From the IMG/VR virus record IMGVR_UViG_2974611114_000001, positions 32,001-96,000 of that record: a DNA stretch of 64,000 bases; one strand, 5' to 3'. This DNA is from a virus. Its lineage: Duplodnaviria; Caudoviricetes. Below, one piece after another: positions 2,419-33,200 of the stretch (the first letter of the stretch is position 1; each line of letters begins with the position of its first letter). The notes beneath the pieces were generated by a model. It did no database searches, had not been told where the DNA came from, and worked only from the letters and a program-made list of their open reading frames with translations. A program made the translations under genes and the position numbers.

Positions 2419-3528
2419 CATGTTACTCCACTGTTTCCAGTGGCATGGACTATACCTTATACCTAAGACACTAGGATATTACCTAGTTTTACGATTACCA
2501 TTAATAACAATATCCTCATATAGAGCATATTTTCTATCTAATCTGCATGACTCTGCTGTATTGGCATACATATAGTGTAGTAAATCTACAGATTTATTAG
2601 TATTTAAAGTGATAGTAAATATGTTGGCTTTTTCATACGACTTGTATGTTACATTCACTACTTCACTTAATACTTTATCTAGCCAGATCATGTTGGGTTT
2701 CGAGATAGAGAATCCTGTGTATAGGGTTGCCGTTCTAGAATTTACATTTGAGAAAGACTCACTTATGGTACCGTCCCCATCAAATAATCCCCTTAAAAAG
2801 TCCCTTAAATACTTTCCGAACACTGATATATCTGGTATTACAGTGCTAAGCGTTTTATTGGGGACTATGGAGTACTTTTCTAAGTCTTTACACATTTCTC
2901 TAGAGGTGAATTCTATCGCTCGTCTCTTATACCCATTGCATTCTTGTATAGTAAACTCAGTACTATTTGTAAATGCAGCAAACTTCTCTAGGTGGCGAAC
3001 ATCTCCTTCTTGTAGCATCAGTCTAACTCTACCTCTCGTGTCCACACAGCCATCAGCGTAGAGAAACCCAAGCCAATAGGCTGACTCCTCTGTGAGGGAG
3101 GAAAAGCAACCATTATACACATACTTTGGTACTTTTCTTCCCCATCCTTCCTTTGCTATTAGCTTCTTTAGTTTCCACTCGGGTATTCCAAATACTTCTG
3201 CTATTTTCGCTCTAGTTAGTTTGTCTTTCTTAAGTTTATCGTAATTGTCTTTGTTGATTTCCATACCTTCCCCTTATAAAAGTTAATGGGTAGGTAATCG
3301 TTCTTAGGTATCTCGCCGTATTATGAGTAATACACCCATCGCAGCAGTATCTGTTCTAGATACTCTGTCAGTCTCTGAACCATTTGATTTTGTCCCCAAA
3401 ACCTCTGGCTGCGGATTAGCATGTCATAGTAATATGAGTTAGCGTCCCCGACAATTGAGCGAGTTATTCTCTATATTTATTCAGCTGAGACTAGATTACT
3501 CTAGATCGGAACCTTTTATTCTTGGTTA
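2419..3528 (-). mobile_element. group I self-splicing intron in DNA polymerase motif B
   Basis: Exon ends in U (UCGGGAU) and pairs with IGS GUUCCGA at 3512-3506; terminal G at 2419; P (AAUUGUCGGGGA ~3455), Q (AAUCCGCAGC ~3415), R (UCAGAGACUG ~3375), S (AAGGUAUAGUCC ~2455); 10-bp P8 (3311-3302 with 2468-2459) flanks the ORF; removal restores an 874-aa polymerase. Confidence 0.93.
2479..3264 (-). CDS. intron-encoded double-motif LAGLIDADG homing endonuclease with N-terminal HTH-like segment
   Basis: Motifs YWLGFLYADG and FLRGLFDGDG; lies in the P8 loop. Confidence 0.88.
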   Translation of the reverse strand: MEINKDNYDKLKKDKLTRAKIAEVFGIPEWKLKKLIAKEGWGRKVPKYVYNGCFSSLTEESAYWLGFLYADGCVDTRGRVRLMLQEGDVRHLEKFAAFTNSTEFTIQECNGYKRRAIEFTSREMCKDLEKYSIVPNKTLSTVIPDISVFGKYLRDFLRGLFDGDGTISESFSNVNSRTATLYTGFSISKPNMIWLDKVLSEVVNVTYKSYEKANIFTITLNTNKSVDLLHYMYANTAESCRLDRKYALYEDIVINGNRKTR

Positions 3529-5321
3529 ATCCCGAAGCTGATCGCCTTAGCTGCCTGTCTTAATGCTGGAAATAGTTTCTTGACTTCTCTTGGTTCACAA
3601 GGTAATTTAAATACCATATGTGCGATAGTTGCATGGAAGTCTGGGTAAGTATCGGGGTCTCTAGTCATATTGATAAAGACTTGTTGCATGTTCTTATCCC
3701 CTGACAGTACTGCTGCATAGTAAATTTCCGCAGTTGTCAAGTCATATGCAACTACTTTATACCCTGGAGGAGCATAGATACATCCCTTGATTATTGATTC
3801 ATCACGTGGAAGCTGTTGTAAGTTCATTTTACCAGAAGAACTTAAACGACCAGAGGTTGTTGTATGTAGGTGGAATCCGGTTCTAATCCTTCCATCACTA
3901 TCAATACTTTGTAAAACTTTCTCTACATACGTTGAGATTAGTTTAGTTGTTTTACGGATTTGCAGTAAAATATTAGCAATAGGATGTTGTTCTGCAATCT
4001 CCATTAGTGATTCCGCATCTGTAGATATAGCTCCTGCCTCTGTAAGCTTACCAGTAGGGGTTAGTCCTAGAATATCGAACAGAAGTACCCGTAGCTGAAC
4101 AACAGAGTTTGGATTAAACCGAGCACCTTGTTCCCTTTCTAGTATTTGTACCTCTTCAAATTCGTATAGCTTTCTCACGTATTCGTTTAACTTATCTGTG
4201 AGCAATTGGTGTGCTAAGTTAAGTCGCTGAACATTGATAGGTACACCACGATCCTCAACACGCTGTAAGAAGCGACAGCCTGGCATGATAATAGTCTGAT
4301 ACAATGATAAGAACTGAGGGTTTGCAACAATTTTCGGATAGAACTTATTGAAGATTCTTAGCGTAGCGTCTGTGTCCTTACTAGCATAAGGCCACATGAT
4401 ATCAAAAGGAATCAGATCATATGTAAAATCCGCCTTCTTAATTTTATGCTTCTTGCAATAATCTTCCTTGAATTTATCTAGCTCAAAGTCGTAGTCACCC
4501 ATATCTGTATAATTCATGGCTAATTGCTTCAAGCCATGAGTACCCTTACGCTCATCTAGAATATAATGAATAAGCATTGTATCGTGTAGACGGTTTTCAT
4601 CATATGCCTTCTCATATGAGAGACCGAAGTGATATGTATACATATGTTGGTCAAACTTTAAGTTATGGAATACTATAGGTCTATCTTTCTGGTCAAATAG
4701 AACTTGAATTTTGTGGGTAACTCGTTCAGAAATAACATCAGCGTCAATATATACACCTTGATACTCTTCATGGGAAATTGATAACCCTAGTACATAACAG
4801 TTTCTAGCATACAGACCAGAGGTCTCCGAGTCAAACGCTAAAGGTGTAGTTGCTGGATCTGTCATTGTCACAAGCATGTTAACATAATCAAATGCTTCTT
4901 GCTCATCTACTATAGGTCTATAATTTCCTGGCTTCGGTGCTGTTAACTTACCTGTAATTATCTTATCAATGTTACTAACAGTTTCCTCAAACACTGGACG
5001 CATTTCAGGCTTGAAGTGTAGTTGCGCTGGGCTAATACTTGGGATCCACCCAGCATACCCTTGATCTTCTACCAATTTACCAGTATAATCTGAAATACCC
5101 GTTCTTTTGGTAAAATGCTTAAAGGGATCTGCACCAATTAAGATAACAAAATCATAATCGTGTGGATTAAATGGATTTTGTGGTGTTCCGATAGTAATAT
5201 CTTTCTTATATACTTTCTTTACACTAACGTCCGTCATGTGAAATACGTCTAAATCTGGAATACCAAAGTGTCTAGAGTAATTAGTATTACTTGGACATTT
5301 ATCAACTAAAGCTATTTTCAT
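3529..5321 (-). CDS. polA: DNA polymerase family A, exon 1 (3'-5' exonuclease and polymerase N-part)
   Basis: ExoI FDSET, ExoII HNLKFD, ExoIII YASKD, TSGRLSS..NLQQLP, motif A YDLTTAE, motif B RQAAKAISFG. Confidence 0.93.
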
Positions 5322-13957: not shown

Positions 13958-14206
13958 TTATATTACTTTATAAGGATCTTTGCAAATAGAATTTTCATGT
14001 ATTTCCGATAGTTCTTTATACCGCTTCTCTAGAACTAATGTTATCATCTTCTGCAATCTGACTGTTCTTCTATGCTCTAACCAAGATATGGGGTCAGGTA
14101 GTAACATCAAGGCTGGTGGAACGACCCTACAGATAGGTCGTTCATCTCTTTCCTCGACGTATTTCTTGGCTGGTGGCTTAGCATATACTTTCTTCCATCT
14201 ACCCAT
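13958..14206 (-). CDS. conserved T5-like hypothetical protein
   Basis: Likely start MGRWKK; overlaps the obp stop. Confidence 0.6.
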   Translation of the reverse strand: MGRWKKVYAKPPAKKYVEERDERPICRVVPPALMLLPDPISWLEHRRTVRLQKMITLVLEKRYKELSEIHENSICKDPYKVI

Positions 14207-16976
14207 CTCCAAGCTCCAAATCAGCAATACCCTCATAGTACTTCTGCTTCTCTTCGATAGTCATAAATGCTACAGGTAACTGGATACCTTCTATTCTGCA
14301 GTACGTTCTGTACCAGTCTACAATATTAGTAGTATCCATATCTTTACCGATACCCATCATTGTTAAGTACATTCTAGCATATTTAGGAGATGCACTATTA
14401 CCAGTTCTAATAAAGAATTCCCTTTTATGGGATTTCATAGCCTCTACGAATGGGACTATTGTCTTTTCAGAACACCTAGTAATTGGCTCCCAGAAAATGT
14501 CTTGAACCTTATGGAAGAACCCAGCTCGTTCGTGTGGCTTTTCAGTAACGTATTGTTCTACTAATTCTCTGGTTAGCTCATTGATGTTGTCCAACTTATA
14601 GTACTGTAATAGTAACATCTTTTCAGAATACGCATCATTATGTCGTAATGGTGTGTAATCAGGAGTAGAAGACATAATAGCATCCACACGTTGATTAAAG
14701 TACTCAGTACTAGCGCTCTCTATACCTCCCCAGCTTTCCGTAAATATATCAATAGTTGCACCTTGATCTAATAAATAGAATCTTAACGTTGATTGATAGT
14801 TTTTACTCTCTATCTCCCTACGTCTGGCGTATAGCTGTTGACTTCTATCAATCCATCCCTCATCAGCATTATATTGCTCAGAACCTGCAACAAATCCAGC
14901 AACACCAGGATTAGTATACATATAGATTGACATTGCACCACGATCTCGCCTGATAGCTTGCATTCTCATGTTTGGTGAGTGATTGGCTGTATTAGTTATT
15001 ACAAATACGTTATCAAAGTAATTAAAGTCAACACCACTAGTTACCGATGGACTACATAATAGGGCATCAATCCCCTGATCAATTAACTCTTGGTTAGTTA
15101 AATCTAGGATTCTTCTAATATCGGGATCCTCTGTAGATGAGGAGTGGACTTCTTTAACATTCGCCCCTGTTGCCGCTCGTAGGGCTATGCCCTTTTCGGC
15201 TAACTGGGCGGGACCGGAGTCTGATACTAATATTGACTTCTCACCCATCTCTAGAGATGTTTGCAGAGCTGTCCATATAGACTTTTCGTCAGGAAACTCA
15301 TATACTTGAGCACCCTCCAGCATTCTTCTATGGTGATTGTAATAATAAATAGGTTTGGCGAAGCCAATTAGAGCACCATAAGCCTCAATCGTTTCTGCAC
15401 TAATATCACCATCCGATAGAACAACATAGTCTGCTGCCAGTAGTAGTTCTCGTAACGTTTCGATGCATGCCCTACGTTGCTTTACGACCGGCGCAAATAA
15501 TAGGTCATTCATAACAGCGTCTGCTTCATCAATAAACACGAAGTTAACTCTATCGGTGAATGTTGCGAACTTATGTATGGAATGAATAGTAGTTGACATT
15601 CTATCAATACCACCACGTTTAAAGTTTAGCATGTCTGCCGTCTTACAATATTGACCTGCACCGAATTTAGCTGCGTTAGATGCTACCAGTGAACGGGTGT
15701 TCGTTACTGCTAGGAACCCCCCTTTAACTAACCCCTTATTAAGCCAATTAATAATTGCAGTTGTCTTACCAGTACCTAAAGATGCTTTAACGAATGTCAT
15801 ACTATTAGGTGGCGGGATTTCCCGAAGTTTTAAGTACTTTTCCGCCTCGTTGCTATCAGTTTTCAGGGCGTACAAAGGCACTCCCTTTAGATTACCTTCA
15901 GGGATTTTTCTAGCTGAATTGTTAACGAATGCTTTTAATGCTTGACGTCTACCATTATTAAAGTAATCTTGAACAGAACGTCTGTTATCTTTAGTACTTA
16001 CATACTCCTCAAGATATGGACGAATTTCTCTCTCTAGCCAAGCTAGATCAACGCCCTCTTCTAATGCTCTATGGTAGAGTTTAGGAATAATACGAAGATA
16101 TACACCATCTTCTGCTTCTTCAAGCTCTCTGATAGTATCCTCTATTTTTTCTGATGTAGATTTTTTTCCTTTAATAGAATCTAATAATGACAAAAATTCC
16201 TCTTTAAATTCACCACGAGTTGACTCATAGTCTGGTGCATTATGTGGAAGATTAATCTTCGAACCCTCAACACGCACCAATCTTGGAATTCTACGTTCTA
16301 GGAAAGGATCTACCATGCCATCCTCAAAGATAGGATCAGCGAAGTAATGTGGTTGTACTGCTGAATAGTACGCTAAGTCAATAAGGTCGGAACCATACTT
16401 TTGGCGTGACGATTCGTTGACAGTCGAAAATATAAACTTCAACTGCCCTTGTGTAACTGGAATATTGCTTTCTAGAATTAAGTGAATACGAATCCCTGGC
16501 TTTATGCCAGCAGAAGATGATGCATGAACAATAAAGCCTGCATCCAATGGAAACATATCCTCACTTATATTATTAAGCATCTTTATAGCAAACTTTGCTT
16601 GACCTACCAAATCGAAATGATCAATATCTTCAGGCAAGGGGAAGTCGTCCACGTCAATAGCTACTACATGGCTTCGCTCTGTTAAATCAAAGTTTACTCT
16701 ACGTCTATAAATAGCATTCTTAGAACCAGTACATTTACCGCGAACGGCTAATAGGTACGGATTCCTAGTGAGGGTGTGTAAAAGATCCTCCATCTCGACT
16801 AAGTCTTCTGGATATACCTCATCAACAACATTATACTGAATAGCCATAGATGCTGGCTTGCCTTCTGGATGTTCTTTATTGAATCGTTTACAGAATACTA
16901 AATCTGTATCCTTTTCATACTCACCAGTGGCTTTATTCAGACGATAGCCCTCATGTCCCTTTAAAATAGTGAACAT
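14199..16976 (-). CDS. obp: replication origin-binding protein (UL9-like SF2 helicase with N-terminal primase-like region)
   Basis: AIDVDD/RIH N-domain, KASLGTGKT, FIDEAD, TSGVDF, Q.IRR.R. Confidence 0.88.
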   Translation of the reverse strand: MFTILKGHEGYRLNKATGEYEKDTDLVFCKRFNKEHPEGKPASMAIQYNVVDEVYPEDLVEMEDLLHTLTRNPYLLAVRGKCTGSKNAIYRRRVNFDLTERSHVVAIDVDDFPLPEDIDHFDLVGQAKFAIKMLNNISEDMFPLDAGFIVHASSSAGIKPGIRIHLILESNIPVTQGQLKFIFSTVNESSRQKYGSDLIDLAYYSAVQPHYFADPIFEDGMVDPFLERRIPRLVRVEGSKINLPHNAPDYESTRGEFKEEFLSLLDSIKGKKSTSEKIEDTIRELEEAEDGVYLRIIPKLYHRALEEGVDLAWLEREIRPYLEEYVSTKDNRRSVQDYFNNGRRQALKAFVNNSARKIPEGNLKGVPLYALKTDSNEAEKYLKLREIPPPNSMTFVKASLGTGKTTAIINWLNKGLVKGGFLAVTNTRSLVASNAAKFGAGQYCKTADMLNFKRGGIDRMSTTIHSIHKFATFTDRVNFVFIDEADAVMNDLLFAPVVKQRRACIETLRELLLAADYVVLSDGDISAETIEAYGALIGFAKPIYYYNHHRRMLEGAQVYEFPDEKSIWTALQTSLEMGEKSILVSDSGPAQLAEKGIALRAATGANVKEVHSSSTEDPDIRRILDLTNQELIDQGIDALLCSPSVTSGVDFNYFDNVFVITNTANHSPNMRMQAIRRDRGAMSIYMYTNPGVAGFVAGSEQYNADEGWIDRSQQLYARRREIESKNYQSTLRFYLLDQGATIDIFTESWGGIESASTEYFNQRVDAIMSSTPDYTPLRHNDAYSEKMLLLQYYKLDNINELTRELVEQYVTEKPHERAGFFHKVQDIFWEPITRCSEKTIVPFVEAMKSHKREFFIRTGNSASPKYARMYLTMMGIGKDMDTTNIVDWYRTYCRIEGIQLPVAFMTIEEKQKYYEGIADLELGDG

Positions 16977-17044
16977 GCTACTATAACTCCTTTGTTATAA
17001 ATTTTAGATACAATTATACTATATAGAATTACCACTTGTCAATT

Positions 17045-17737
17045 GCATTTTTCACGGCTAAGGCTTCCGGTGGCACAAGTGCTCGGGTTCCCCTTATCTT
17101 ACTCCTGCAACTTCTAGTTAATAATAAACAGATTCCATAACTACCTCTTACGCCATTGTGCTAGGGAGAGTGTTCCACGTAAGCCCCATCGTTGCATCGA
17201 TTCTTTAAGTTTCATTATGTTCACTGCTAGTACAGACGTTTTCTCAAAATAGAGAATTACTCCGAAGCTATAAACTTATATCACCATTCATTGTATTACT
17301 TCAAAACCATAATGCGGCAAGGTTACGAATGCTAACAGCCAGTTGAATCATAATAACCGCCCCACGATATCAGATAACCCGCTAAGGCATACGTGGCTCG
17401 GGACCCCTTTCCTCCGAGGAGGCATTAAGCGCCGTAGTTACTAAGTTCAATATCCGACTTTTTTCAGGCTCGAGGCAGTAGGGCATACATCTCTGATTAA
17501 GGCATCGAATGCCATATGTACCGCACGCGGGATCACACCGCACCTACTCTGTTAGCTTTGAATTGTCATAATACGAATAATGTTACAGGTTCATAGTCAT
17601 CGGAGACAAAAGTCTCCGACTAAGGCAGAAATCTACCTCAATATAATAAGAGACCCAACGAACCGTACTCTATCGAGTATCTCTAAGGGCACTCTAGGAA
17701 TACCCTTAGAGATCGGGGATCCCTCCCCTCACTCGAT
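17045..17737 (-). ncRNA. candidate large structured ncRNA (~690 nt)
   Basis: No ORF in the track; consensus promoter just upstream; many hairpins with G-U pairs and a long-range helix; 3' end uncertain. Confidence 0.6.
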
Positions 17738-17743
17738 ATAAAT

Positions 17744-17772
17744 ATTATATCAAATATTTAAAAATTTGTCAA
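17744..17772 (-). promoter_or_regulatory. sigma70 consensus promoter
   Basis: TTGACA-17bp-TATAAT. Confidence 0.85.
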
Positions 17773-17796
17773 GAATACTTTATAAAATCGCATCGA

Positions 17797-18506: not shown

Positions 18507-20372
18507 TTACTGGATCTTACCGCTACGCACATCTGCATGCTTAACCCTACCCATAACCTCATGTTGCTTACCTGGGTTAAATGGTCTAGCACCTGGGTTA
18601 CCTAAGTATCCACATACCCTTCGTGTAATTTCAAGAGTGTTAGTATCGTGGTTACCACAAGCTGGGCATTCAAACCCATTCTCACTGGCTATGGCTTCGC
18701 CAATAAAACCACATTCACTACAGGTGTCAACAGGAGTATTAATACCAAAGTAATGAACCTTACTAGCAGCATAGTCAATTACCCACTCTAAAGCATCTAA
18801 GAATCGCTTCATATCTGGTAACTCTACATAAGCAATGCAACCACCACTAGCAATAGAAGTAAAGTTAGATTCATAATCAAATTTGACATCAGGAGCCACC
18901 TTTCTAGCAACATCTAAATGATGCGAGTTAGTATAGTAACCTTTCTCGAATAGCCAAGAATACTCAGGAAATTTATTAGCATCCAACTGGTTGAAACGAT
19001 TACATAATGACTCACTAGGAGTTGCATACAAACTGAAGCCAATACCTGTATTAGCCTTTTCAATATCACACGCCTCACGTATGTATAAAAGAACTTGCTT
19101 AACGAATTCGATACATTCAGAGCTCATAGTATCTACATTTTTACCGAACATTGCTTGCAACATCTCATGGCAACCAATATAACCTACGGAAATGGATGCA
19201 CGATCCTTAAAATGGTCAAATACTAAGTCCTTTGCATTCAGTCGCATACCAAAAGCCCCTGACATGTATAAGATAGGAGCAGCTTCTGCTCTTACTTTCT
19301 TAAGGTGATCCATTCTCCAATAGCATGCATTAATAGCCAGTTCTACCCGCTCTTCTAAAATGTCGAAGAAAGTATCAACATCTCCTTCTGACTCAATAGC
19401 GATTCTAGGTAGGTTTATGCTAACAACACCTAAATTATTACGACCTGCTGTCTCACCATCTTTATTGGCAGCTAAGAAACTTCTACAACCCATACTTACT
19501 TTATAGTCACCAGTAACTTCAACAACCTTATCATATGATATGTAGTCAGGATACATGCGTTCACTAGTACATTTAATAGCTAGCTTCTTAATATCGTAGT
19601 TAGGGTCACCGGGTTTCATATTAAGTCCAGGTTTAAGTACATATACTAATTTGGGAAATATAGCAGTATGTTTACCATTCCCTAATCCAGCCATTCTAGT
19701 ATTTAGGATAGCTTTCTGTATCATTCTAGCTTCCCAAGAAGTACCTAACCCAAATCCTAGAGTAACAAAAGGGCTTTGACCATTTGAGTTAAAGAGTGTA
19801 TTGATCTCATACTCCAAACTCTGCATAGCATCTTTAACTTCCTTCTCTACCATCTCAGTTGCCATTACAGCAGATTTAGCAACATCCCCTTTCAACCACT
19901 TCATTGCAAATGATAGCGCCTTATTATATGACGCCCTGACATACGGAGCATATATTTCATCAATTCTATCAATAGATGTTCCTCCATATTGGTGACTTGA
20001 CACCTGAGCTAAAATCTGTGCGGTCACAGCCACAGCTGTATCTAGAGACTTAGGAGTTGTAATATCAGCATTCCCTACTCGCATACCATCCCTTAGCATC
20101 CCTTCTAAATCTACCAAACAGCAATTAGTGTAGCCCATAGCAGAGTAGTCAGCGTCATGGAAGTGGATGTCTCCAGAGTTATGTGCTTCTAGGATATCTT
20201 CAGGTAGCATTTCTTCTAGTAATGCCTTACATACTTCACCCGCCAACATATCACGTTGAGTGGCTAGTCGTTCAGAAGGCTTATTAGCATTATTAAACCG
20301 TAAATCATCTTCCGCTGTGTTAGAGATTATATCTCTAGAGTTGTTCATCATACTTTTTAATTTTTCAGTCAT
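18507..20372 (-). CDS. nrdD: anaerobic ribonucleotide reductase (class III)
   Basis: HFHD, TNCCL, MGCRSFL, ATPSESLC, CxxC/CxxC, RRVCGYL glycyl-radical loop; start MTEKL after GGAGG. Confidence 0.95.
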   Translation of the reverse strand: MTEKLKSMMNNSRDIISNTAEDDLRFNNANKPSERLATQRDMLAGEVCKALLEEMLPEDILEAHNSGDIHFHDADYSAMGYTNCCLVDLEGMLRDGMRVGNADITTPKSLDTAVAVTAQILAQVSSHQYGGTSIDRIDEIYAPYVRASYNKALSFAMKWLKGDVAKSAVMATEMVEKEVKDAMQSLEYEINTLFNSNGQSPFVTLGFGLGTSWEARMIQKAILNTRMAGLGNGKHTAIFPKLVYVLKPGLNMKPGDPNYDIKKLAIKCTSERMYPDYISYDKVVEVTGDYKVSMGCRSFLAANKDGETAGRNNLGVVSINLPRIAIESEGDVDTFFDILEERVELAINACYWRMDHLKKVRAEAAPILYMSGAFGMRLNAKDLVFDHFKDRASISVGYIGCHEMLQAMFGKNVDTMSSECIEFVKQVLLYIREACDIEKANTGIGFSLYATPSESLCNRFNQLDANKFPEYSWLFEKGYYTNSHHLDVARKVAPDVKFDYESNFTSIASGGCIAYVELPDMKRFLDALEWVIDYAASKVHYFGINTPVDTCSECGFIGEAIASENGFECPACGNHDTNTLEITRRVCGYLGNPGARPFNPGKQHEVMGRVKHADVRSGKIQ

Positions 20373-20576
20373 TGTTTCTCCTCCGATATATTGATACATT
20401 ATACCAAATCTGTACGTCTATGTCAACTAAAATTTATTTATTCTTCCAGCGATAACAAAATATTAACAAAATTTTATTTGACAAGCTGAAAATTATATGA
20501 TATACGCACGTATGCGCGCTCGCGCGTTATAATAAAAGAAAGGATTCGATCTTTCAGGTAGTTTTAAAAATTGTAC

Positions 20577-31160: not shown

Positions 31161-32006
31161 ATGTCTAAGGAAAAGCAATTCGCCCCTGTACCAGAGCAGG
31201 AAGATTTATATAGGGAGCTATCCAGAATTGTTGAGATATTTAAAGTATCTAAAGGCGAACTACGACCACATTTTATGTTATCTGGTGCATCAGGGTCAGG
31301 AAAATCATTTCTTATACAAGCACTGGCATCCATAGCAAAAGTTGGTTTTCTTGAAATTAACGCAGCTCAGCTAACTAAAGAAGGCGTGTCTGGAAATAGC
31401 TTATCAAAGGCACTTAGTCCCCTTAGAGAGCGAGCTGGTAAACCTACAATAGTATTTGTTGATGAATTTGACAAACTGTTCATCTCTGGTAATACTAATA
31501 GTGAATTAGCCCATGAAAGTACTAATGGGGTTCAAAACGAGTTTCTAAAAATTCTAGAATCGGAAACTACTTCTGTATTTGGGGACTATGGCAAGTATGT
31601 AGAAGTTCCAACAAATAATGTTTTATATGTATTTGCAGGAGCATTCAATGGTGCCGAAAATCTGACGCTAGACAAGTTACGGGATATGGGAATTAAGACA
31701 GAGTTTCTAGGTCGTGTTGGGTTGATATATAATACTACCAAAATATCGTTGTCTAGTATGTTAAACTTCTTAACAGAAAATACACTACTAGACAAATATT
31801 TGAGTATCTTTCCTGAAGTAGATAAGCAGGAAGTAATAGATACTTTAATCCCTATCGTTAAAGATCAGTATGAGGAAAATACTCTTGGTCTTAGAATGAT
31901 AAACACCCTAATAACTAAATATTTTGTTAGTGAAGGTAAAATGACTCAGGGCAGTACTGATGAAGCCCCTGTATTACACCGAACACTTAAATTTGGAGCC
32001 AAATAA
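31161..32006 (+). CDS. ClpX-like AAA+ ATPase lacking Zn domain and IGF loop
   Basis: GASGSGKS, AAQLTKEGVSG, FVDEFDKL, GVQNEFLKILE, AGAF, G..TEFLGR, LGLR. Confidence 0.8.
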   Translation: MSKEKQFAPVPEQEDLYRELSRIVEIFKVSKGELRPHFMLSGASGSGKSFLIQALASIAKVGFLEINAAQLTKEGVSGNSLSKALSPLRERAGKPTIVFVDEFDKLFISGNTNSELAHESTNGVQNEFLKILESETTSVFGDYGKYVEVPTNNVLYVFAGAFNGAENLTLDKLRDMGIKTEFLGRVGLIYNTTKISLSSMLNFLTENTLLDKYLSIFPEVDKQEVIDTLIPIVKDQYEENTLGLRMINTLITKYFVSEGKMTQGSTDEAPVLHRTLKFGAK

Positions 32007-32476: not shown

Positions 32477-33200
32477 ATTAAATCGGAACACGGATTATTA
32501 ATAATTCTAATAGTACGATTTCAGGGTACAGCAGGCAGACTATGCTGGTAATATAAGTACATTGTGCTAATTACGAATAGAATCTGTGGGTTTCACTATC
32601 ATAGTGTATAATTTGGCTCTTAACCACCCCGTAAACTCTACCCTTGCATTTTACTACGGTTTAATGCAGAAGAAAGTAAGTATCTTGGTACAAGAGGCGT
32701 AGACACAGGATCGCGGTGCAAATCCGTTAAGTTATCTGCATAAAAGAAGCAACGAAATCTACTCGTCTGGGTTCAACTCCCAGTAACAGATAATAAGGTA
32801 CTAAGAGAAAACAACGAATAAGTATACTAGGTCGCGAACTACTATACTGAGTCCCTAATACTAAATTAGGAAATGTGGAGCTGATCACTTCCCATTTCGG
32901 GATATACTACCTCATGGGGCACCAATATTAATAGCGGAACCCATACGCTTCCTAGGCACGTAAGGGATAAGTCATGACACCCTGCCTATGATGGAATATT
33001 GGAGAAAGTGGTAGTGTAATCCCGAAATGGGTGTGTCGAACTCACTTATGTTGTAACCCTGTTAATATATGAGAGTGTTTACGGGAGTATATTAATAAGA
33101 ACAAGATAACTGGGGCTTATATATTAAGCATCGCTGGCACTACGAACAGTATCCAGGTCTGACCAGGAGACGCTGTTAATGAAGAAAGCCAAAACCCATT
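32477..33200 (+). ncRNA. candidate large structured ncRNA (~720 nt)
   Basis: No ORF; promoter directly upstream; more than 10 helices including long-range pairings and two T-loop hairpins. Confidence 0.7.

Follow-up and report, generated by a model that had tools for sequence, protein, structure and literature searches.

The stretch of DNA analysed here (the window, 64,000 nucleotides, positions 32,001 to 96,000 of IMG/VR record IMGVR_UViG_2974611114_000001) comes from a T5-like Proteus phage of the Stubb-like class in the genus Novosibvirus. Directly upstream of obp, which encodes a UL9-like helicase of the origin-binding type, it contains an 820-bp gap (16977–17796) with no open reading frame (ORF) of at least 60 aa. 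The gap encodes a structured RNA on the minus strand, which is the Proteus (Novosibvirus) version of an element that at least seven T5-like lineages carry ahead of obp, with its shape kept and its sequence not. Coordinates are window positions, a position within the RNA equals 17738 minus the window coordinate, and m denotes the position of an 8-mer motif within the element. In the order of predicted transcription, the locus comprises the following parts.

17744–17772, minus strand: promoter P1, with TTGACA at 17772–17767, a 17-nt spacer and a TG-extended TATAAT at 17749–17744; +1 predicted at ~17737.
17672–17737, minus strand: 5′-terminal hairpin domain (RNA 1–66), with a closing stem (1–7/60–66), a short hairpin GGGGA/UCCCC and another of 16 bp that contains two U-G pairs.
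17654–17667, minus strand: short conserved island UACGGUUCGUUGGG (RNA 71–84).
17599–17640, minus strand: two adjoining hairpins ahead of the rod (RNA 98–117 and 118–139).
17519–17596, minus strand: 5′ strand of the rod helix (RNA 142–219); duplex z −4.7 against 300 shuffles, with the rod retained in the centroid.
17357–17401, minus strand: motif module (RNA 337–381), predicted as an outer helix, a hairpin GCCU-UAGC-GGGU and a 3′ bulge, with the 8-mer CUUAGCGG at 17386–17379.
17268–17319, minus strand: 3′ strand of the rod helix (RNA 419–470), the end of the strongly conserved part.
17241–17256, minus strand: small hairpin right after the rod, UUCUC-UAUUUU-GAGAA; in T5 the same position holds CUAUUC-UUUCU-GAAUAG.
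17045–17267, minus strand: variable 3′ spacer (RNA 471–693), where 4.0% of sites differ from Stubb and single-nucleotide polymorphisms (SNPs) break predicted pairs.
17013–17042, minus strand: promoter P2, TTGACA-18-TATAAT, ~30 nt ahead of the obp start.
14199–16976, minus strand: obp, encoding the 925-aa helicase, a homologue of T5 D2; start codon at 16976.

A first-pass annotation of the window had pointed to a gene-free gap of 820 bp, to a perfect TTGACA-17-TATAAT at 17772–17744 with +1 at ~17737 and to a promoter of obp's own at 17042–17013, all of which were recovered, each promoter matching the consensus at 12/12 positions. The P1 context TGnTATAATATTTATAT was also found ahead of the leaders of T5, Shivani and the Providencia phage PR1, and P2 is missing in T5, Klebsiella phages and PR1, with a P2-like site in the IMG/VR lineage L068. 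When compared to the phage collection (BLAST, distant mode), the gap matched eight Novosibvirus records (Stubb, RP7, PL1 and others) at 98.7–99.4%, and beyond these close Proteus phages the search gave nothing of note. In Stubb, the gap is flanked by a hypothetical gene and a gene annotated as "replication origin binding protein", and three doubtful small ORFs are annotated inside it. The small ORFs annotated in the Stubb and RP7 gaps have no PHROG family, and no ORF was common to the different leader types when these were compared, so that the small conserved ORFs which the first-pass annotation had named as a competing explanation of the gap did not appear; the structured RNA accounts for these spurious "hypothetical proteins". 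The obp product is 66% identical to T5 Obp and matches the Pfam family Herpes_ori_bp (PF02399) over residues 391–536 with 26.8 bits. T5 Obp is the bipolar helicase D2, for which a role in initiation has been proposed (PMC3632103). The element lies near the middle of the linear genome, at 50–51% in Stubb and at 48.6% in T5. We know of no target of the initiator-like helicase D2/Obp.

All minus-strand stems listed in the first-pass annotation are present and are used in the minimum-free-energy folds. These are the closing stem of AUCGAGU (17737–17731) with ACUCGAU (17678–17672), the enclosed 16-bp hairpin with its two U-G pairs (16-nt arms, 88% complementary), the hairpins GUCGGAGAC-UUUU-GUCUCCGAU (17620–17599) and GGCAU-UCG-AUGCC, and the long-range pairing GCUAACAG/CUGUUAGC. 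Compared to shuffled sequences, the minus strand folded better than chance (z −2.72) and the plus strand did not (z −0.69), while the folding stability of the core alone was unremarkable (z −1.34). In the predicted fold, an irregular rod of ~45 bp closes off a core of ~330 nt.

The conservation pattern delimits the RNA further. Between this phage and Stubb, only 1 of 470 sites differs over RNA 1–470, while in obp 7.7% of all positions and 20% of third codon positions differ, and third positions differ by 8.9% in the upstream ORF and by 35% in the ribonucleotide reductase gene; the 3′ 223 nt of the RNA differ by 4.0%. Among six Proteus phages, the changes in the rod turn A-U into G-U three times and G-U into A-U once, so that pairing is kept (as G-U for the SNPs at 17296 and 17271 in the 3′ strand), and a single change disrupts a pair that belongs to one of two alternative inner pairings. 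The SNP at 17626, in the adjoining hairpins, converts a G-U pair to A-U. The 3′ part carries 11 SNPs among the same phages, several of which break predicted pairs. Judged from these comparisons, the part under selection is 17737–17268, and 17267–17045 varies like neutral sequence among Proteus phages. The RNA of ~690 nt proposed in the first-pass annotation thus stands as a structured minus-strand RNA but not at that length, ~470 nt being under selection and the last ~220 nt forming a variable spacer. Just upstream of P2, the spacer contains a partial direct repeat (17057–17095 versus 17381–17410; AAGGGGnnCCCGAGCnAC...UGCC), a degenerate copy of the motif-module flank. The ribonucleotide reductase gene, which is of the anaerobic type (18507–20399), differs from Stubb at 13.6% of all sites compared to 4.7% for the adjacent ORF, a disparity which indicates that the Proteus phage genomes are mosaic.

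An ORF-free stretch of 480–760 nt, headed by an early sigma-70 promoter, was found ahead of obp in Proteus phages, Providencia phages PR1 and PSTCR5, T5 and its relatives, L007 (a second Tequintavirus/Epseptimavirus-like type), Klebsiella phages, and the IMG/VR lineages L068 and L069. Across seven lineages the element was never seen away from obp, and in T5, Klebsiella and Providencia phages it is the sole leader between promoter and obp. No homology between lineages was detectable in sequence, as nhmmer searches with the Proteus gap against the other obp-upstream regions gave no matches. What the lineages share is an arrangement. A long hairpin starting within ~10 nt of +1 is present in Proteus and also predicted in T5, L007, Klebsiella and PR1, and counterparts of the conserved island are located equally far from +1 in PR1 (CGGUUCGUGGGG) and in T5-type lineages (UACGGAACAGUUCGG), a weak resemblance judged by eye. 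The 8-mer CTTAGCGG occurs exactly once per 6–13-kb locus and once in the 64-kb window, always on the obp sense strand and inside the gap, at 299–352 nt from the predicted +1 and 170–410 nt from the start codon. Its probability in a dinucleotide-shuffled leader was 0.012 for Proteus (0.0013 within the positional window) and 0.009 for PR1 (0.001), and the other large RNA of the window (32477–33200) lacks it.

Anchored on this motif, the rod was assessed as the duplex of segment m−215..−135 with segment m+45..+125. The z values were −4.7 for Proteus, −3.5 for PR1, −3.9 for T5, −4.7 for L007, −5.4 for L068, −4.0 for L069, −3.0 for PSTCR5 and −0.9 for Klebsiella, compared to a mean of 0.0 (sd 1.0) for 48 control anchors within the obp coding sequence, none of which reached −3.5 or lower. 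When the 52 nt surrounding the motif were folded without constraints, an outer helix, an xxCU-UAGC-GGxx hairpin and a 3′ bulge of 6–9 nt resulted for 8 of 10 lineage representatives. The outer helices of this module have wholly different sequences between lineages, the stem pair adjoining the C-G is G-C, C-G (Proteus) or A-U (L069), and within the T5 type two double compensatory changes in the outer helix separate L012 from T5. The 3′ bulge in L068 and L069 reads CCUCCUUAA or UCUCCUUAG and resembles the anti-Shine-Dalgarno tail of 16S rRNA, a feature not shared by the other lineages.

The 5′ end is more variable in some Tequintavirus members. In the loci L003/L036 (Shivani type, 2845–3000), L006/L025 (~2412–2510) and L035, some leaders have the promoter and first hairpin duplicated and are 611 nt long, and others carry an insertion of ~100 nt right after the first hairpin and reach ~590 nt. 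Insertions are thus tolerated at the 5′ end of the leader but not in the core. Outside the lineages described above, an ORF-free gap of ~640–860 bp headed by a promoter also precedes obp in Vibrio T5-like phages, but their homology was not supported, as CTTAGCGG is lacking and the covariation term of the alignment is positive (unfavourable). In one of them, Vibrio phage PG07 (L039, ~1950–2130), the gap contains two tandem copies of a ~70-nt unit (GACTATCACTTTGTAGCCTCAATCCTCGGATTG...). The L029/L074 lineage, with 49% Obp identity, was likewise rejected, having only an AT-rich gap of 370 bp.

The T5 group allows the pairing to be assessed by covariation. Within a type, the core diverges by 1–5% compared to 4–11% for obp, whereas it is 54–62% different between types; T5-type and L007-type cores share 33–60% identity, within flanks that are 85–100% identical. 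As the sequence hardly changes within a type and is replaced from one type to the next while the fold is kept, the RNA exists as discrete "types". The alignment across T5-like phages that the first-pass annotation had put forward was made from 16 leaders of the T5, L007 and Klebsiella types, for which RNAalifold predicted 98 pairs; the structure assessed is thus derived from the same alignment, which favours it. In this alignment, 96.7% of cells were paired, compared to 88.1% in shuffles and 37–48% with slid partners, and 33 of the 98 pairs changed on both sides, compared to 18.5 ± 1.8 in shuffles (none of 500 reached 33) and 7–11 when slid. At one position of the long-range helix closing the core, G-C, A-U and U-A all occur, with the G-U intermediate in T5 itself. 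The excess of double changes is large despite the self-derived structure, and the compensatory changes support the fold. On the sense strand, 312 cells were G-U and 10 were A-C, and the folding energy of the alignment was −62.8 kcal/mol for the sense and −44.7 kcal/mol for the antisense strand. The G-U pairs and compensatory changes indicate RNA rather than DNA palindromes, so that conservation of the palindromes as DNA only, by which the first-pass annotation would have judged its RNA mistaken, is not what was found.

Expression was assessed in libraries of T5-infected cells, and the leader was found in both RNA-seq and RIP-seq data. In the T5 libraries of two studies, the contig from the upstream region ends at or just past the annotated terminator, and a new contig begins 35–55 nt after the predicted +1 and runs unbroken into obp. 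All runs were available as assembled contigs, from which true ends, strand and abundance are not readable; they cannot prove a single transcript but show the leader in RNA libraries, assembled with obp. In one RIP-seq library, adapter sequence abuts both of these ends, at positions 2433 (the terminator) and 2546 (inside the 3′ arm of the +1 hairpin) of the T5 locus (L024). The end at 2546 might reflect processing of the 5′ hairpin, e.g. by RNase III. Positions 2490–2545 of L024 are uncovered in two runs, which proves nothing.

The element does not correspond to a known RNA. In a cmscan search of the whole window with the Rfam 15 covariance models, only tRNAs (of a tRNA cluster) reached the gathering threshold, and for the gap alone, at a permissive threshold of up to E 10, nothing was better than E = 1.7 and all hits were far below gathering; no Rfam family fits the gap in this check, which the first-pass annotation had proposed, and the T5, PR1 and Klebsiella loci gave no Rfam match either. 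GOLLD, ROOL, OLE, raiA, 6S and group I/II introns were rejected, as none of their models reached gathering. The RNA is annotated neither in the ~60 T5-like records of our search table nor in three T5 GenBank records, in which this site carries no annotation besides a terminator, the early promoter T5P32 and obp, and our literature search found no publication describing it. The structured RNA ahead of obp is therefore unannotated and outside the RNA catalogues. New here are its occurrence in Proteus and Providencia phages and in L068 and L069, the CU-UAGC-GG module that the lineages have in common, the fixed geometry of the rod, the contrast in conservation within and between types and the two-promoter layout.

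The RNA at 17737–17268 (minus strand) is very probably the Novosibvirus version of a family-wide structured RNA that forms the 5′ part of an early transcript entering obp, and it probably serves in starting or controlling phage DNA replication. As to how, we lean, with less than an even chance of being right, towards a type-specific cis-acting RNA of a replication-initiation locus, comparable to the PE1-T transcript of phage c2. Transcription from P1 through the non-coding region would give a folded RNA, the structure of which would be needed to start replication at that locus, by priming, by R-loop formation or by recruitment of the adjacent Obp helicase, and P2 would separately provide the obp mRNA. 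This reading fits the P1/P2 layout in Proteus, the behaviour as types, the place directly upstream of a helicase gene in mid-genome and a pattern in Obp itself. Residues ~358–418 of Obp (T5 locus L024 ~4075–4255; window ~15720–15900), just before the Walker A motif, are hypervariable, and their divergence follows the type of the leader RNA, with a between/within ratio of 4.0–4.4 compared to 1.3–1.9 for adjacent Obp windows. This co-segregation is a weak hint, drawn from sequence comparison. The promoter, strand, fold, conservation pattern and, in T5 RNA libraries, the contig joining leader and obp were shown, and any link to origin firing or Obp binding is our inference.

Several points weigh against this origin transcript. 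Most lineages lack a second promoter, and the RNA there is simply the 5′ untranslated region of obp. T5-like phages have a primase of their own, and to our knowledge no mapping has assigned the T5 origin to a sequence. In 1976, Bourguignon et al. reportedly placed a first-round origin near the genome centre. Signals of a DNA origin were also looked for in the gap, and no AT-rich unwinding element was found (GC 0.44–0.475, above that of the flanks), no iterons or tandem repeats (Tandem Repeats Finder gave only the AT repeat of the promoter) and no antisense promoter in the 5′ part, with no plus-strand promoter-like site anywhere within 17045–17737. The association of Obp with RNA type could be plain linkage. 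A covariance model of the T5-group module (R1) missed the Proteus site even without filters and gave PR1 only at E = 5; this model, comprising the module and unstructured flanks with an effective 2.9 sequences, is over-fitted to flank sequence and hence not usable for membership, and the membership of Proteus rests on position, motif and architecture. Finally, in a study of recombitrons, the strand bias of T5 suggests dominant unidirectional replication from one genome end (PMC10055335).

With one mismatch allowed, the motif occurred 28 times compared to 34 expected and so showed no enrichment, and AACAGTT is present in three copies in the T5 leader. An iteron-type DNA origin, for which repeated boxes and an AT-rich unwinding element would be expected, was rejected, as neither is present.

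The evidence has to be weighed against other readings, of which the main one, a regulatory 5′ leader acting only in cis on obp expression, is possible, if rather doubtful. As a binding site for Obp or for some other protein of phage or host, the RNA would affect translation, stability or read-through (autogenous control), in the manner of T4 gp32 and gp43, which act on RNA operators to repress the mRNAs that encode them, and a 5′-terminal hairpin is a classic mRNA stabiliser. The absence of a terminator where the element is the sole leader (T5, Klebsiella, Providencia) speaks for such a role, as do the T5 contigs that pass from ~35–55 nt beyond the predicted +1 straight into obp after the upstream contig has stopped at the terminator. 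The second promoter between RNA and obp, however, bypasses the leader in Proteus and L068, the distance of 170–410 nt between motif and start codon is not fixed, and the pairing predicted near the T5 Shine-Dalgarno sequence is invariant and therefore uninformative, and is lost in Klebsiella, L068 and L069. Moreover, a core of 330 nt far exceeds known translational operators, and a simple leader would not usually be near-identical within a type and dissimilar between types. A translational operator of the T4 gene 32/gene 43 kind was rejected in particular, since the Shine-Dalgarno-adjacent pairing is not conserved across lineages and P2 bypasses the leader. The first-pass annotation had argued for a stand-alone RNA because obp has its own promoter. 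That argument fails in the T5, Klebsiella and Providencia relatives, which use the element as sole leader from promoter to obp, and it is further countered by the absence of any terminator between element and obp in this phage and by leader and obp lying in one contig in the T5 RNA libraries.

We consider it unlikely that the ~470-nt core is processed out as a stable trans-acting RNA, serving as a scaffold, as a decoy aimed at a host factor or a defence system, or as an ornate RNA like RNAX, GOLLD or ROOL. In its size, its compact fold with closed ends and its very strong conservation within types, the core would suit such a role, the variable spacer and P2 uncouple it from obp in Proteus, and an arms race would be compatible with cores being replaced rapidly between related phages. 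On the other hand, no terminator or recognisable processing site was found after the rod, the T5 contigs are unbroken between core and obp (weak evidence, being contigs), the element never occurs apart from obp in seven lineages, and no Rfam family matches. An element acting at the DNA level only, i.e. a protein-bound origin or operator whose RNA structure is a by-product of inverted repeats, is much less probable still: it adjoins a gene annotated as a replication origin-binding protein and the T5 leader has its AACAGTT copies, but the paired segments are nested and up to 340 nt apart, the G-U to A-C count of 312 to 10 and the better folding both point to the sense strand, helices change sequence fully between lineages yet stay complementary, and neither iterons nor an AT-rich region are present. 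That the stretch has no function, and is a spacer or a decayed sequence located behind a promoter by chance, is hardly credible. It is true that the 3′-most 220 nt behave as a neutral spacer would and that the core alone has only a modest folding z of −1.34, but 1 of 470 nt differs where neighbouring third codon positions differ by 9–35%, and across seven lineages the architecture is retained, with compensation.

Taken to its furthest form, the origin-transcript reading would make the element the RNA half of the T5-family replication origin, a folded, type-specific transcript in mid-genome that works with Obp/D2 and co-evolves with Obp residues ~358–418; this stronger claim is speculative, and we regard it as rather unlikely. 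If true, replicon specificity among co-infecting T5-like phages would be set by an RNA–protein pair. The locus in any case gives a concrete candidate for the T5 origin or for initiator control, beside obp in a classic model phage, and adds a new class of large structured RNA in hundreds of sequenced T5-like phages, many of which are used in therapy and biocontrol. How cores could be exchanged between conserved flanks is a separate matter. In Salmonella phage Shivani, an HNH homing endonuclease gene is located immediately upstream of the leader promoter (L003, 2392–2844), and homing-driven gene conversion could contribute to the mosaic of conserved flank and replaced core.

Among known systems, the large phage-borne or ornate RNAs GOLLD, ROOL, OLE, raiA and T5 RNAX resemble the element in being several hundred nt long with an intricate covarying fold and carried by phages, but here the RNA is always coupled to obp and not to tRNA clusters, and has no Rfam match up to E 10. 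The autogenous operators of T4 gene 32 and gene 43 are likewise structured RNAs in the 5′ leader of a replication-protein mRNA, yet these span tens of nt and overlap the ribosome-binding site, whereas the core described here is ~330 nt, lies 60–400 nt from the Shine-Dalgarno sequence and shows no conserved sequestering pairing. RNA-primed or transcription-activated origins are represented by ColE1 RNA II, the T4 oriF/oriG R-loops and the T7 primary origin, and share with the element a strong promoter reading into a non-coding stretch of several hundred nt beside replication functions; RNA II, at ~550 nt, must also fold correctly. The element differs from these in having no AT-rich unwinding element downstream and no sequence or Rfam similarity, and from ColE1 in that no RNA I-type antisense promoter, to be expected in the first ~110 nt, is present within 17045–17737.

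The comparison that guides our reading is with the ori types of the lactococcal Ceduovirus phages (c2, bIL67, 923), which also give a precedent for the origin-associated primer or R-loop transcript that the first-pass annotation had suggested as its alternative. The c2 ori is the non-coding region between the first two early promoters and falls into types without inter-type similarity, and the PE1-T transcript, through its length and its structure (which is critical), is considered to initiate replication by a transcription-mediated route (PMC7150918). The two systems have no sequence relation (no lactococcal phage was found in the distant collection search with the gap), ori activity has been demonstrated for c2 whereas the element here is a candidate, and in the T5-like phages it lies directly upstream of a gene for a UL9-like initiator, in most relatives without a second promoter. 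In both, nevertheless, a non-coding region bounded by two early promoters (P1 and P2 in this phage) is transcribed into a non-coding RNA, and it occurs as discrete types that are conserved within themselves and lack significant similarity to one another.

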